Translations under genes and position numbers: made by a program
Part shown: positions 7,333-64,000 of the stretch, one piece after another
Layout: each line of letters starts with the position of its first letter
Position numbering within the stretch: position 1 is the first letter of the stretch
DNA from: an uncultured Gammaproteobacteria bacterium
GTDB taxonomy: Bacteria; Patescibacteriota; Patescibacteriia; UBA9934
Length of the DNA stretch: 64,000 nucleotides
Assembly (NCBI GenBank): GCA_964401485.1
Contig: CAYNYL010000001.1
Coordinates: 67,834-131,833 of the forward strand
Direction of reading: 5' to 3'
The notes under the pieces: model-generated
Database searches by the model: none
The model's input: only the letters and a program-made list of their open reading frames with translations
What the model was told of the DNA's origin: nothing

Positions 7333-8730
7333 CTAGTCTTTTGAAATCGAGAGACCGAGCTCGCGAAGTTGCTTTGGTGGAAGTGGCGAAGGAGCATCCA
7401 TAACGGCCGTCTGCGCATTTCCGGTCATCGGGAAGGCCTGCGTTTCGCGAAGGGCCGATTCGCCGGTCATGTTCATCACGTTTCGCTCGACTCCAAGCGC
7501 GATTCCTCCATGTGGTGGCGCACCGTACTCGAACGCGTCGATCATGTGACCCACCGACTCTTGAATCTCTTCGTCCGAGTAGCCCATGTTCTTGTAGGTC
7601 GCGCGAAGAATCTCCGGACGATGGGCGCGGATCGATCCGCCTCCCGCCTCGTACCCGTTACAAACGAGATCGTACTGTGTCGTAAGAATGTTCTCAATAT
7701 TTGTTCCGTTCATGTGGTCGTCGAGGTGCTCCGGCTTTGGCATCGAGAACGGATTGTGCGTAAACGTCCAACCACCTTCATCATTTTTCTCAAAGAATGG
7801 GAAGTCGACAACCCATGCGTACGCAAGCACTCCGTTCGCCTTATCCTCTTCCGTTCGAAGATCGAACTTGTCGGCGCCATACTTCGCCATCGACTCTTGG
7901 TACGTAACGCGCGGGAACGGCTTGTACTTAACGGTGTAGCCAAGCTTTTCGACCGTCTCGATCACCATCCCCTCAACCATATTCATGACATCTTCTTGCG
8001 TCACAAAGCTCATCTCGATATCGATTTGTGTGTGCTCAAATCCGCGGTCCGCGCGTGGATCCTCGTCGCGAAGCGCGCGAGCCGTTTGGAAGTAACGCTC
8101 AAATCCCCCAACCATCAAAAGTTGTTTGTATTGCTGTGGGGACTGTGGAAGTGCAAAGAATTTTCCAGGTTGCAAACGGGAAGGAACAACGAAATCGCGC
8201 GATCCTTCCGGTGTCGCTTTCGAAAGAAGCGGAGTTTCAATTTCGCAAAATTGATTCTTGAAAAGATACTCGCGCGCCCCTTGGATAAAGCTACTCCTAA
8301 GTCGCATGTTGCGCTGGAGACGCTCGGTACGAAGATCAAGATAGCGATACTTAAGTCGTGTCTCTTCATTGATCCCTGCCGTATCCTTGTCGAGCTCAAA
8401 CGGCGGCGTCTTCGCCTCGTTTAACACGGTGATTTTCTTCACCATAAGCTCAACCGTTCCCGACTTCATGTTCGGGTTGACCTGCTTTTCTCCGCGCGCC
8501 TGAACCACGCCCTCAATTTCAACCACCCACTCGCTTCGAAGCGTTCCGGCAACCGCGTCCGCTTCTTCGCCCGACTCGCTTGGAACAACAACGAGCTGGA
8601 GAAGCCCGTCTTTATCGCGAAGGTCGAAAAATTTAACCTTTCCCATGTCTCGGCGAGCGTGAATCCACCCCGCCACTTTTACCGTTTCCCCCACCTTCGT
8701 AACCGTCTCGGACGTCATGATTCTTTGCAT
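7333..8730 (-). CDS. aspS: aspartyl-tRNA synthetase, short archaeal/eukaryal type without the GAD insertion
   Basis: FALPQSPQQYKQLLMVGGFERYFQ and the class II motifs are present. 465 aa, against about 590 for the bacterial type. Confidence 0.85.
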   Translation of the reverse strand: MQRIMTSETVTKVGETVKVAGWIHARRDMGKVKFFDLRDKDGLLQLVVVPSESGEEADAVAGTLRSEWVVEIEGVVQARGEKQVNPNMKSGTVELMVKKITVLNEAKTPPFELDKDTAGINEETRLKYRYLDLRTERLQRNMRLRSSFIQGAREYLFKNQFCEIETPLLSKATPEGSRDFVVPSRLQPGKFFALPQSPQQYKQLLMVGGFERYFQTARALRDEDPRADRGFEHTQIDIEMSFVTQEDVMNMVEGMVIETVEKLGYTVKYKPFPRVTYQESMAKYGADKFDLRTEEDKANGVLAYAWVVDFPFFEKNDEGGWTFTHNPFSMPKPEHLDDHMNGTNIENILTTQYDLVCNGYEAGGGSIRAHRPEILRATYKNMGYSDEEIQESVGHMIDAFEYGAPPHGGIALGVERNVMNMTGESALRETQAFPMTGNAQTAVMDAPSPLPPKQLRELGLSISKD

Positions 8731-60255: not shown

Positions 60256-60606
60256 TTATTCCTCTACCGGAGTAGCCCTAACTGCATTTCCCCATTCTTG
60301 ACCCTCTCTCCAAATATGCAAGTACCAATACGCAGGCGCGGCAACGAATCCCGCCCAAAGAAGCGCGATCGACCACCCAATCTTTTCTTTCCAGTGCATA
60401 CCTTTATTCCTGTAGACCAAGCGAATGAAAAAGAAGGCCCCTAGTATGAGTAGTATTCCAATTATCAATACAACTAGTACGACAATTGTCACCTCAGTAT
60501 CAGTGTCGGCAATCGGTCCTGACGCAGTTAGAGCCGCGGTTGTTATTTTAAAAGCCGGGAACAGAAACGCTATAGCCCCCAACCCAATTTTTTTCACTTT
60601 TGTCAT
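60256..60606 (-). CDS. hypothetical membrane protein
   Basis: 116 aa with three predicted transmembrane segments. Confidence 0.4.
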   Translation of the reverse strand: MTKVKKIGLGAIAFLFPAFKITTAALTASGPIADTDTEVTIVVLVVLIIGILLILGAFFFIRLVYRNKGMHWKEKIGWSIALLWAGFVAAPAYWYLHIWREGQEWGNAVRATPVEE

Positions 60607-60624
60607 ATTCGCGTCTTTATTTCA

Positions 60625-60939
60625 TCAATCCCCAACCCTCCAAATAAACATCCTGCCATCATCGGTAAGCTCCATAAATTCAGAGTCCTCGGCCGCATCT
60701 TGACGCAAAGAAACGAAAACCTTAACACCCCCATCAAAATGGAGAACGGCCTCAGAATTCAACTCGACAAGATCCGTACATATTCGTCCCACAAGATCGG
60801 AAAACATCCCTCCTTCAATTTTTGATGCGGCGTATAAATTCAACACGCCGCCATGATCGAATCGAATCTGAAAGTAATCCTCCCCGCGATCGGCGCTAAG
60901 GACCATTTTACCTACCACACGGTCTCGAATAAGGTTCAT
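60625..60939 (-). CDS. putative immunity protein for orphan RHS-CT toxin 1
   Basis: 104 aa. Its start lies 8 bp after the toxin stop, the typical toxin-immunity coupling. Confidence 0.5.
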   Translation of the reverse strand: MNLIRDRVVGKMVLSADRGEDYFQIRFDHGGVLNLYAASKIEGGMFSDLVGRICTDLVELNSEAVLHFDGGVKVFVSLRQDAAEDSEFMELTDDGRMFIWRVGD

Positions 60940-60947
60940 ATTTTGGA

Positions 60948-62047
60948 TTAATAATCAATCTGATGATGTGCCTCCTTCGGAGAAACAGTTTTTCCTGAAT
61001 AAGGATCCACTCCTTGACCAAGGCCATTTTGGTACTTAATATATCCTGTTGGATTTGGATTGTTTGGATCCATGATACGCATTTTATCAACCTGACCATT
61101 CGCCCCACCGTGTCCCCCTATGAATCCTGTTCCAGTCTGCGCACCGCTTCCGCCGATTGAAGGAACGGGTCCAACCGCCCCGTCAGGAACAGGATATGCG
61201 GTTCCTCCGGGCGTTACGATGAAATTAGGTACATTGCTCGAACCAGTTTGCACCGCCTTCTTAATCGGTCCATCAACCGCCTTCACCGCCGCCTCCCCGA
61301 CAATCAAACCTCCTTTCACCCCCTTCGAGCTAACCCCGGGAATTGCGAGTGCCGCTACTGCGATACCACGATCCGCGACAGACAGAGTCTTTCCGGTTGC
61401 TACATCCTTGCCTACGACCACCGAGTAAGCGTCGGAGAAGGTGTCGACACCGGGAGTAGCCGAGATCACCGACATCGTCGTTTTACTGATAGCGCGGTCA
61501 ATATTGATAATTGCCCGTACGGCCCATGTCGCCTTTATAGCCTTCATTCCACTAGGATCGTACATCGAGATCGGATTATTTCTTGCGTAGGCGTACTTGT
61601 TGAGAGACTGCGGATCGTAGTAGTCACCTTCCCAAGGATCCAGGCTTAAGAATCTTCCGGTGTCGGTCGAGAGGTAACGAGCTTCAAAATAGGAAAGATC
61701 GGTTTCTTCGTCTCGCTCTTTATTCGTGTAGTCGAAACGATTATCGGAAGGGGTACCAATGACCTCGTCCACGAGGACGTTACCATAGGGTTCATAGTAT
61801 TTGAAGGACACTAGATCTCCAGCATCGTCCGTCATTACCGCAACAGATCCGAGGTGATCCGTGTGGATCCACTCTTCGGTTAGGTCGTTCCGTCGTCCGT
61901 TCGTTTGAAGACCGGCGCGCCGTTGAGAGAAAGGTGATGTTCGGTGTCGCCATTAGCCGTAATTACGTAGTCGCCGAGATATGCCGTTCCACCACCTTGA
62001 CGTTCAAGGCATTGCAAACTACTCAAGCCGATCAAGATGAACCAATC
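60948..62047 (-). pseudogene. orphan RHS C-terminal cassette 1: RHS repeat-associated core plus a variable C-terminal toxin domain, disrupted by a 1-nt frameshift near 61890
   Basis: The intact ORF 60948..61835 begins DHLGSVAVMTDDAGDL...YYEPYGNVL...GRFLSLDPWEG...NKYAYARNNP. Upstream, a different frame encodes YLGDYVITANGDTEHHLSLNG, homologous to copy 2, and ends at a stop. Confidence 0.6.
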
Positions 62048-62870
62048 TTAATTCATTAACCATTGGAAGCCACTTTTCTGATTTTTCGTCTATATCTTCC
62101 TCAAAATCTTCTTTAAAGATCTTGATAAGCTCCTCTTTGAGATCAGAAACATTCCCGTTTTCAAGAATTGCACCTATCCGCAAGGCTTCGTGGGAATAAT
62201 CAAAATCATCTCCATACTTCCTAAACTCCATAATGTCATATCGGTCGAGAATCGCTTCAACAATTTTTGTTCTACGCTCAATTCTTGGAAGATCCGTTAT
62301 CCAGGATGGCTCTGGAGGGAAAAAACCACTTGACCGTCTGTAAACATCCACTAAACGTTCAACTTCAAATTCGAGCATTTCGTGCAAGCTCCCCCAACTT
62401 CTTATCGAATCGCAGGTCTCCCGATCAATATGCTCGACTATGCCACTATTCACATCCATAATTAAGTAATCCGATTCTTGGCCTACGCTTCCTACAATCA
62501 TCTTATCGGCAGATAACCCAATAGGTCTCTCGTCTGTATTCGCGGTTACAATGTCAAACGGTAGCCACCGCCCCATCCCCATGCGATCGGAACGCCAGCG
62601 TTTTCCATAGATACTTAACCGACCAGCGAAGAGGCTTAATCCATTTGTTTCATGCAAGAACCGAATGAACTCAGGGTGAATCCGCCCGATTTGCGATTCG
62701 AGATGATTAATTTCTTCATCCGAAAGTGGGGCCCACAGAACATGATATTTAGCTTCCGATCCCAAGTGCTCTGCTCGACCCACGAGCTCAGTACCGCCAG
62801 GTAAAATCTCATAACCGGTTTCAATGACTAATCGTACGGCCGGGTTCAGGATATCTCTATATTTCTGCAT
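62019..62870 (-). CDS. SUKH/Smi1-Knr4-family immunity protein
   Basis: 283 aa containing FIRFLHETNGLSLFAGRLSIYG. Confidence 0.6.
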   Translation of the reverse strand: MQKYRDILNPAVRLVIETGYEILPGGTELVGRAEHLGSEAKYHVLWAPLSDEEINHLESQIGRIHPEFIRFLHETNGLSLFAGRLSIYGKRWRSDRMGMGRWLPFDIVTANTDERPIGLSADKMIVGSVGQESDYLIMDVNSGIVEHIDRETCDSIRSWGSLHEMLEFEVERLVDVYRRSSGFFPPEPSWITDLPRIERRTKIVEAILDRYDIMEFRKYGDDFDYSHEALRIGAILENGNVSDLKEELIKIFKEDFEEDIDEKSEKWLPMVNELRLVHLDRLE

Positions 62871-63072
62871 ACGTTATTCAACCAAATCCCCACTAGTAGG
62901 GTTTTGCCAATTTCCTCCATGTGCATCAAGATGCTCGTTGCGAGTTTTAAATGTAATATTATGCGGATCACCGGCAAGCTCCGGGTAGGCTTTTACGCTA
63001 TTGATATGATGACCTTGGAATCCGGAGGCTTTTCCTGTTTCGATAATTTCCTTAACTTGCTCTATGCAAACT

Positions 63073-63795
63073 TCAATGCAACCAAATATTCACGCCCGAT
63101 AGCGCAATGGGAACCGTAGCGGCAAACTGGGTAAATTCTATTTCCTGAGGCGTAAGCGGCTTCTGCGTCACCATGTTCACCCCAGAGACCGCCTCATACG
63201 AGTCTCGAAAATCGGATACACCGGGGATGAAGCTCGTGCCGAGGTCAACTATTGCCCCGAGCACCGCGTCGAGTCCGCGCATGATTCTAAATGCACTAAA
63301 CTTTTCCCCCGTCGGGTCATTGTACGTGATCGGATTATTTCTTGCGTAGGCGTACTTGTTGAGAGACTGCGGGTCGAAGTAATCTCCTTCCCATGGATCT
63401 TGGCTTAAGAATCTGCCGAGATCGGTTGAGAGGTATCTTGCTTCGAAGTAGGAAAGACCGGTTTCGGCGTCGCGTTCTTTGTTTGTGAACTCGAAGCGAT
63501 TTTCTGGAGGAGTACCAATGATCTCATCCACGAGGAGGTTACCATACGGTTCGTAATACTTGAAGGAGGTTAAATCTCCTTGGTCGTCGGTCATGGCAGA
63601 CACCGATCCAAGGTGATCAGCATGGATCCATTGGTCAGTGACGGTCATTCCATCGTCATGGCGCTCAAAGATTGGAGAACCGTTAAGAGAGAGGTGGTGC
63701 TCGGTGTCGCCGTTCGGGGCAATGACATAGTCTCCGAGGTAGACGGTGGTGTCGGAGGAGTTGACGATCTTTTGGATGCGGTCGCCGGCGCTACT
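63073..63795 (-). CDS. orphan RHS C-terminal cassette 2: RHS core plus a distinct C-terminal toxin domain
   Basis: VYLGDYVIAPNGDTEHHLSLNG...WIHADHLGSV...YYEPYGNLL...GRFLSQDPWEG...NKYAYARNNP, then a tail unrelated to copy 1. The first ATG is at 63648. The homologous frame is open back to the stop at 63796-63798. Confidence 0.6.
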   Translation of the reverse strand, partial: SSAGDRIQKIVNSSDTTVYLGDYVIAPNGDTEHHLSLNGSPIFERHDDGMTVTDQWIHADHLGSVSAMTDDQGDLTSFKYYEPYGNLLVDEIIGTPPENRFEFTNKERDAETGLSYFEARYLSTDLGRFLSQDPWEGDYFDPQSLNKYAYARNNPITYNDPTGEKFSAFRIMRGLDAVLGAIVDLGTSFIPGVSDFRDSYEAVSGVNMVTQKPLTPQEIEFTQFAATVPIALSGVNIWLH

Positions 63796-64000
63796 CTATT
63801 ACAATGCCAATGTTTCTTAGTTGTTTTTTTGGATTCCAGTTGGCGGGCCTTGCCACTATACCGATATCCTCCGAATCCCATTTCATTCCCCCCTTGATCC
63901 AATTCTGACGATACTGATTTATGAGAACCTCTTCACTCTCCGTTTCCGAGTAGTCGGCATAACCCGTCTGAAAACCGCACGATGAACAGATCTCGTAGGA
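63791..64000 (-). CDS. 3' end of an unassigned minus-strand ORF; the 5' part lies beyond the window
   Basis: The frame is open from the window edge to a TAG at 63791-63793 and reads ...NQYRQNWIKGGMKWDSEDIGIVARPANWNPKKQLRNIGIVIE. It may be the immunity gene or toxin tip of an upstream full-length RHS locus. Confidence 0.3.
   Translation of the reverse strand, partial: SYEICSSCGFQTGYADYSETESEEVLINQYRQNWIKGGMKWDSEDIGIVARPANWNPKKQLRNIGIVIE

Follow-up and report, generated by a model that had tools for sequence, protein, structure and literature searches.

A probable orphan rhs toxin/immunity array with decaying toxin frames in a Patescibacteria contig

Introduction

Close to the right end of the 64,000-nt stretch of DNA analysed here (contig CAYNYL010000001.1, positions 67,834 to 131,833, assembly GCA_964401485.1; hereafter the window), the minus strand of positions 60625-63795 carries two copies of the 3′ end of an rhs gene, each leading towards a different C-terminal domain and each followed by a small gene. 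The locus raises the question of what such headless fragments are: debris of former rhs genes, self-contained toxin-antitoxin (TA) pairs, or cassettes held in reserve for a complete rhs gene elsewhere. A first-pass annotation, made from the sequence alone, had taken them for tandem orphan C-terminal toxin (CT) cassettes with cognate immunity genes, one of SUKH type. Our analysis supports that view. The two modules lack N-termini, share an orientation and lose their mutual homology at the DPxG motif, and the block is very probably the distal part of an orphan rhs C-terminal toxin/immunity array in the genome of a member of the Patescibacteria, or candidate phyla radiation (CPR).

Orphan rhs-CT/rhsI modules reportedly lie downstream of main rhs genes in Enterobacteria. 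The modules in the window resemble these in having a 3′ core without start codon or delivery part, a CT that follows directly upon DPxG, a presumptive immunity gene immediately downstream, a tandem same-orientation arrangement, and core identity between the copies. They differ from them in their Patescibacteria host, in that no type VI secretion context is visible and the main gene was not observed, in the frameshift that separates one toxin from its scaffold, and in the PT-TG linker that stands between core and toxin.

Results

Two tandem modules share an RHS core and diverge at the DPxG motif

Six-frame translation of 60600-64000 resolved two modules on the minus strand of 60625-63795, arranged in tandem and in the same orientation, with module B (63795-62019) preceding module A (62047-60625). 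Each consists of a ~440-nt fragment of the 3′ rhs core, a PT-TG linker, a toxin domain peculiar to the module and a small downstream gene, in that order. Both contain an RHS repeat-associated core ending in the DPxG motif. The cores score above the 32.5-bit cut-off of the NCBIfam model for this family, TIGR03696 (Table 1), and align to positions 1160-1260/1261 of the RHS_core model, which represent the last ~100 residues of the RHS shell. The PT-TG domain (PF14449; cut-off 23.5 bits) lies between scaffold and toxin in both cases, with scores of 38.3 bits in module A and 25.8 bits in module B.

The core fragments have neither a start codon nor an N-terminal part of their own. RHS_repeat/YD repeats (PF05593, PF25023) were not matched in either module or upstream of the cores, tblastn with eight RHS-core proteins found no further RHS sequence in the window, and no N-terminal secretion or trafficking domain was detected; upstream of the core fragments there are only the preceding small genes. 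The homologous frames open after stops at 63796-63798 (module B) and about 62048 (module A). Core homology among A, B and a relative, L010, begins ~45 nt past the stop of the preceding small gene, and homology between the modules terminates exactly at the DP(S/T)G codons. At the distal end, the spacer between toxin stop and small gene is 8 nt in module A and, measured from the nuclease remnant described below to the 283-aa gene, 3 nt in module B. A 3′ core that lacks its N-terminus and leads into a variable CT, with a small gene close behind, is the anatomy of an orphan rhs-CT/immunity locus. The region had no match to plasmid DNA.

Aligned in register, the core segments 61570-61835 and 63329-63594 (266 nt) are 82.3% identical; in the overall comparison, which spans 427 nt, identity is about 77%. 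A 45-nt run is identical in the two modules and would be the best substrate for recombination between them.

Much of this architecture had been read correctly at the outset. The two minus-strand modules with their conserved cores, the missing YD repeats, the stops after which the frames open, the 8-bp coupling of the 104-aa gene (which starts at 60939) and the end of the edge open reading frame (ORF) all hold. Other statements need adjustment. The quoted core motifs are all present, but in module A YLGDYVI and HTDHLGSV sit in different frames; the core identity, given as ~85% over ~270 bp, is slightly lower, and its partner segment, given as 63334-63600, is displaced by 5 nt; and the small gene said to follow module B immediately does lie next to a toxin remnant but not next to the core frame, which ends 200 nt before it.

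Table 1. Features of the minus-strand block and its borders, in 5′ to 3′ order of the minus strand
Feature	Position	Strand	Remarks
Edge ORF, 3′ end (69 codons + stop)	63791-64000; stop 63791-63793	-	Runs off the window
Module B core fragment	63304-63795	-	TVYLGDYVI (63747) to DPTGE (63304-63318); TIGR03696 75.2 bits
45-nt repeat, identical in the modules	61569-61613 = 63328-63372	-	Encodes PQSLNKYAYARNNPI
Module B linker and PT-TG (63091-63228)	63073-63303	-	Ends at TGA 63073-63075
Tox-GHH (HNH/EndoVII) nuclease domain	62874-63089; stop 62874-62876	-	+1 frame relative to core/PT-TG
283-aa SUKH-1-like gene, intact	62019-62870	-	PF09346
Module A core fragment	61545-62047	-	YLGDYVI (61984) to DPSGM (61545-61559); TIGR03696 68.3 bits
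Module A C-terminal region	60948-61544; stop 60948-60950	-	PT-TG 61326-61457; CT1 60951-61232
Imm1, 104-aa cognate immunity candidate	60625-60939	-	8 nt after CT1 stop

Each module carries a frame break that recurs in independent assemblies

Compared with module B and with L010, a 90.6% identical relative, module A lacks 1 nt at 61883, and this loss creates a TAA at 61880-61882. As a consequence, YLGDYVI..HHLSLNG..DDGTT is read in one frame and the text resumes (..EEWIHTDHLGSV..) in another. Module B and L010 have one extra nucleotide at the equivalent position and are read straight through (..DDGTTITDQWVHTDHLGSV..); because both of them keep this nucleotide, the deletion in module A is the derived state. 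The break in module B lies elsewhere, between PT-TG and the toxin domain.

Two Logan assemblies (L001 and L002, from runs SRR13355622 and SRR29476910) extend from the module B CT through the 283-aa gene into the start of module A, in the order found in the window, and contain both frame breaks; over ~1.5 kb they depart from the window at 1 single nucleotide polymorphism (SNP). Since both breaks recur in two independent assemblies, they are not assembly errors. L001 and L002 begin in the module B copy of the 45-nt repeat and finish inside the core fragment of module A, end points that are expected of an assembler meeting a repeat.

Module A pairs an intact C-terminal domain with a 104-aa protein

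The C-terminal domain of module A, which we call CT1, forms the last ~95 residues of an ATG-started ORF of 295 aa (60948-61835; P0003). It has 41 homologues at 42-61% identity, with the consensus FIVSPGGTAFPVPKGATGP..GGANGQV.TMRIM..GYIKYEN..QGVDPYTGKT...SHFPID; because nearly all of them end within one residue of the end of P0003, CT1 is complete in the window. Across the family, the domain is found joined either to the end of an RHS core (..RFLQTDPVG..NLYAYV.NNP..DPTG) or to PT-TG, and these fusions give CT1 the appearance of a polymorphic-toxin tip. The domain is covered by no Pfam or NCBIfam model.

Ntox10 (PF15520) was considered as an identity for CT1 and rejected, as it matched neither the window protein nor 37/40 family members. 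In the remaining three, all from Leptospira, the match is confined to the N-terminal ~80 residues (profile 1-81/193), outside the shared C-terminal domain. These Leptospira proteins (P0262, P0271 and P0273) are annotated as 'polymorphic toxin type 10' and have a C-terminal domain of the CT1 family; because the Ntox10 match is N-terminal only, the 'type 10' name labels the wrong part of them.

An AlphaFold2 (AF2) model of CT1, built from a 40-sequence alignment, has a pLDDT of about 93 over residues 31-127 and is all-beta with one short terminal helix. The best match among folds in the PDB, and the only one to rise above background, was PT7 (8owu_C), at a weak E value of 0.45 and a probability of 0.89; superposition gave a TM score of 0.58, normalised to the 76-residue target, with an rmsd of 5.1 Å. 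Profile and sequence searches of the PDB with CT1 returned no meaningful match, and the CT1 motifs, used to look for PT7/PT8 sequences in the Levy-lab preprint supplement, do not occur there. PT7(Bc), from the LXG toxins of Bacillus cereus, is a Mg-dependent DNase with a novel fold that was solved with its immunity protein, PIM7 (8owu; bioRxiv 10.1101/2021.10.19.465003). Like it, CT1 is a small C-terminal polymorphic-toxin domain with a candidate immunity gene downstream. Unlike it, CT1 is longer and is found on RHS and PT-TG scaffolds rather than LXG; the two have no sequence similarity, and homology is not established. The predicted 'nuclease-like' character of CT1 is a lead, not a result.

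The protein encoded downstream of CT1, Imm1, belongs to a sparse family: a search of 1.84 billion proteins found 22 representatives at E≤1e-3. In three other contigs that encode CT1-family toxins (L007, L008 and L009), an ORF of 106-111 aa follows the toxin at a distance of 13-14 nt. An Imm1-family hidden Markov model (HMM), built without these ORFs, finds them with E values of 2.5e-23, 3.4e-21 and 5.2e-11, respectively; among 924 ORFs, drawn from the window and all fetched loci, its one other match was the window gene. That the two families adjoin each other in three unrelated loci is good comparative evidence, and it supports the assignment of CT1 and Imm1 as a presumptive cognate toxin-immunity pair.

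Module B places an out-of-frame Tox-GHH nuclease beside a SUKH-1-like gene

The frame that carries the core and PT-TG of module B closes 200 nt short of the 283-aa gene. Between PT-TG and that gene, the +1 frame encodes the peptide GFQGHHINSVKAYPELAGDPHNITFKTRNEHLDAHGGNW, which matches Tox-GHH (PF15636) with 43.2 bits (cut-off 25) over profile positions 40-77/78 only. GHH, NITF and NEH can be read in the peptide, in agreement with G[HQ]H, NIxF and [DE]H, the motifs that define the family (PMC3482391). A complete Tox-GHH domain, with the N-terminal WxxE and W motifs and in frame with the scaffold, was not found in the module, and two conceptual frame repairs, one of which recreated W-L-H-E = WxxE, left the match unextended towards the N-terminal half. 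The nuclease is thus out of frame, possibly also N-terminally truncated, and module B is a dead cassette whose nuclease is inactive as encoded. Classification of the CT domains, suggested by the first-pass annotation, succeeded with a known family in module B and led to one absent from Pfam and NCBIfam in module A.

The 283-aa protein had been assigned to the SUKH family. It does match the SMI1_KNR4/SUKH-1 model (PF09346) over the full profile (1-123/125; E=1.5e-4), but with 22.8 bits it falls short of the gathering score, 25.4. The YrhA family is matched weakly and no sequence in the PDB is matched, and a single-sequence AF2 model (pLDDT 37) was unusable. An identical protein is present in the two Logan assemblies. 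Tox-GHH occurring with Imm-SUKH and RHS repeats is a tabulated polymorphic toxin association (Zhang et al. 2012, PMC3482391), and because the 283-aa protein adjoins a GHH nuclease and fits this association, we take it to be probably the SUKH-1 immunity protein for that nuclease. The HNH/EndoVII motifs and the RHS scaffold are as in other Tox-GHH/Imm-SUKH pairs (PMC3482391), and the gene next door is SUKH-like. Unlike in those pairs, the Pfam model is matched over its C-terminal half alone, by a domain that is out of frame, and the SUKH match is sub-threshold, in a protein that has an extra C-terminal extension, helical and ~110 aa long.

Related loci combine full-length RHS genes with orphan modules

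The modules sit among ordinary housekeeping genes of the window, including those for EF-G, IF-2, LeuRS, ProRS, AspRS, RNase Y and ComEC. The window LeuRS is 64-67% identical to its best named matches, and because all of these are from Patescibacteria/Parcubacteria/Uhrbacteria, the CPR attribution of the host is correct. The closest homologues of the cores are likewise short proteins (250-420 aa), several of them from Uhrbacteria, Peregrinibacteria and Gracilibacteria assemblies, and arrays of the same type were found in L005, L011 and L012, usually at contig ends.

A third module is represented by P0002, a protein of 308 aa whose record, like those of the proteins of both window modules, places it on an NCBI contig 181,708 bp long. 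Its first 76 residues equal the module B ORF; a different tip of 190 aa follows (..FGWTTEKTLAKSYRDHGKGLG..GFRRWVDSEGRVRLYEPETNTLGSYTKDGDAITFMK..), which has no Pfam match. P0002 is not encoded within the window. It appears to lie on the same contig, outside the window, and the array probably has at least three modules.

Comparison with related genomes for cassette shuffling, another course that had been suggested, brought to light a core mosaic. P0004/L010 is a strain variant with the module A core and another CT. In the related array of L010 (1-1867; GCA_020049755.1), the end of an HNH-type toxin and a DUF4265 gene are followed by an in-frame, module-A-like core with a different tip, whose HNH motif (DHAIPKSQGG..CRTCNLQKG) is also out of frame. 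The P0004/L010 core resembles module A in its upstream part but module B at the ITYNDPTG junction, a pattern consistent with recombination between cores.

Complete RHS genes were found in association with such fragments. L004 has a long RHS gene (RHS repeats, PT-TG and Ntox24), then Imm53, then more core-fragment modules, and in L008 a 2409-aa RHS gene and a DUF6984 gene are followed by an orphan ORF of the CT1 family with its Imm1-family partner. Both display the canonical layout, in which a complete RHS gene and its immunity gene precede orphan modules. Among the 80 related metagenome loci retrieved with the core alignment, 12 core copies terminate uninterrupted frames of >1,300 codons; about 39 are orphan-like, with a stop <400 codons upstream. 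From these counts, the core subfamily ends full-length genes in some cases and stands as an orphan fragment in more. One of the 12 belongs to a full-length protein of 2222 aa with SpvB, FG-GAP and RHS domains, encoded on the plus strand of L014 (4241-10909), and its core is 55% identical to that of module B. L014 is a 174-kb contig from Hainich groundwater (0.2 µm fraction) whose neighbouring genes encode pseudopilins, a 1096-aa amidase/SpoIID protein, an RsmI-like protein (TP_methylase) and a TsaB-like protein (TsaD-family); it may come from a CPR bacterium.

In contigs of several independent assemblies, the ends of L001 and L002 and the starts of L005, L011, L012 and L013, the break falls inside RHS core repeats. 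Such breaks imply that RHS arrays in these lineages are systematically fragmented, and full-length RHS genes are likely to be under-reported in their metagenome-assembled genomes (MAGs).

Discussion

A proposed model for the array

Each module retains no more than the last ~140 codons of the RHS shell, including the ARYxxxxGRFxSxDP...NNPxxxxDPxG region that in a complete gene precedes the toxin tip and releases it. What follows is inferred from what is known of Rhs and contact-dependent inhibition (CDI) orphans in Salmonella and E. coli. The intact immunity genes would be the selected and expressed parts, guarding against matching toxins from relatives. Module A could be grafted onto a full-length rhs gene through the ~300-nt, 81-82% identical core segment that lies downstream of its frameshift; such a graft would yield an in-frame chimera in which the deployed toxin is swapped. 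Module B may now amount to an immunity gene and a decaying toxin remnant. Recombination in the core cannot rescue it, because its break sits between PT-TG and the nuclease, and module A would then be the sole 'loaded' cassette of the two. The earlier suggestion that core identity would let the cassettes recombine into a main gene can thus apply to module A and not to module B.

Several observations weigh against this model. A full-length rhs gene has not been seen for this genome, and the view ends at 64000. Promoter-like sites occur at chance frequency. With 82% identity and a single 45-nt perfect run, the cores make a modest substrate for homologous recombination. The fold match of CT1 to PT7 is weak (E 0.45), and the SUKH match of the 283-aa protein is below the Pfam threshold.

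Other readings of the block

An unlikely variant holds that CT1/Imm1 is a new family that may have the DNase fold of PT7 and has spread over scaffolds of the RHS, PT-TG and Leptospira types, and that the array may function with no full-length RHS delivery gene. If so, it would be purely an immunity island, or a set of TA-like modules, and would shield an epibiont from the toxins of its neighbours or hosts. We give a similarly small chance to the idea that module A is a self-standing, internally expressed TA-like pair with a promoter inside the conserved core, producing either the 295-aa ORF or a shorter form that starts near DPSGM. CT1 is intact, in frame with the ATG-started ORF and 8 nt from Imm1, and the 45-nt repeat of both modules contains a sigma-70-like site, TCAACA-17-AATAAT (63362-63334 and 61603-61575, minus strand), just before DPxG. 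There is also a precedent in Salmonella Typhimurium, where internal promoters (P2) lie in the conserved rhs region and drive expression of main and orphan CT and immunity genes (Starsta et al. 2020, PMC7043789). However, promoter and terminator scans of the region gave nothing above chance, with 5 promoter-like sites against 5.4 expected in shuffles, in a scan for sigma-70-like sites that did not cover CPR promoters. The hexamers coincide with codons for the best-conserved peptide motif, and a promoter is therefore not required to explain why they are conserved; direct reading of the sequence gave no convincing Shine-Dalgarno sequence before the candidate starts. A self-standing pair would in any case be compatible with the orphan array.

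The remaining explanations deny the block a function, a history as cassettes, or its reality. That all of it is a functionless, decaying relic of former rhs genes or cassettes, immunity genes included, would account for the frameshifts in both toxin reading frames, for a Tox-GHH N-terminal half that is undetectable in any frame, and for the HNH motif likewise out of frame in the related L010 module. We consider it improbable: CT1 and the 104-aa and 283-aa ORFs are unbroken and reach the full length seen in their families, the sequence is the same, bar one SNP, in three assemblies that come from different samples, and a streamlined genome would be expected to shed useless DNA fast. Truncation in place, by deletions that left two formerly full-length rhs genes with nothing but their 3′ ends, is more doubtful still. 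It would agree with a main gene that was not observed and with a list of homologues dominated by short RHS-core ORFs, yet both cores start at YLGDYVI, ~45 nt from the stop of the preceding small gene. This common start fits duplication or insertion of modules and does not fit two independent deletions; in addition, L004 and L008 show the full-length gene and then such fragments. Finally, the tandem order or the frameshifts might be artefacts of assembling a repeated region in a MAG. Repeats are present here, and other assemblies have contigs that break off right in the core repeat, but two independent Logan assemblies agree on the order and on both frame breaks, which makes an artefact scarcely credible.

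The orphan array in its CPR context

Orphan rhs toxin/immunity arrays are a well-described kind of locus, and RHS-type toxins have already been reported in CPR bacteria. A Saccharibacterium is known to encode an RHS/YD protein of 2487 aa next to an immunity gene (PMC6031116), and a Gracilibacterium a TccC protein (PMC6851277). Our locus resembles these cases in that a polymorphic toxin of RHS type and a presumptive immunity gene stand side by side in a CPR host with a small genome, and differs from them in that they are full-length proteins, whereas here only orphan modules are visible. Database annotations, too, already name RHS-core proteins in several CPR MAGs. With these precedents and the Uhrbacteria, Peregrinibacteria and Gracilibacteria modules at hand, the first-pass claim that such toxins are unusual in CPR organisms was overstated. 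In the literature on polymorphic toxins or RHS in Patescibacteria/CPR, we found no description of orphan rhs arrays, and this scant coverage marks the topic as under-described rather than new.

The architecture is textbook Rhs orphan biology and as such opens no new question. What is modestly new is the CT1/Imm1 family, together with evidence that toxin frames decay while immunity genes persist in a reduced genome. The streamlined genome of a member of the Patescibacteria devotes several kilobases to contact-warfare modules, and the persistence of intact immunity genes beside decaying toxin frames bears on how epibionts compete with kin or survive the toxins of their neighbours. CT1 and the 104-aa protein provide a clean, testable toxin/immunity pair for a domain family outside Pfam and NCBIfam.

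Genes bordering the array

Upstream of module B, the edge ORF has no Pfam match; from its position before module B, and from that alone, it is likely to be the immunity gene of the next module upstream. On the other side, 18 nt downstream of the 104-aa gene, starts an ORF of 116 aa (60256-60606, minus strand) with about three predicted membrane spans and no significant family match. It could be an orphan immunity gene against a membrane-targeting toxin, or it could be unrelated, and its membership of the array is uncertain. When pieces of the window were run by tblastn against a BLAST database of the 90 fetched loci, neither of these ORFs, nor the SUKH protein, nor the GHH piece found a match. 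Farther away, the AspRS of the window (7333-8730, minus strand) is only 465 aa long and aligns with the bacterial model (590 positions) in two stretches that are not contiguous, which suggests that it has lost the insertion domain.

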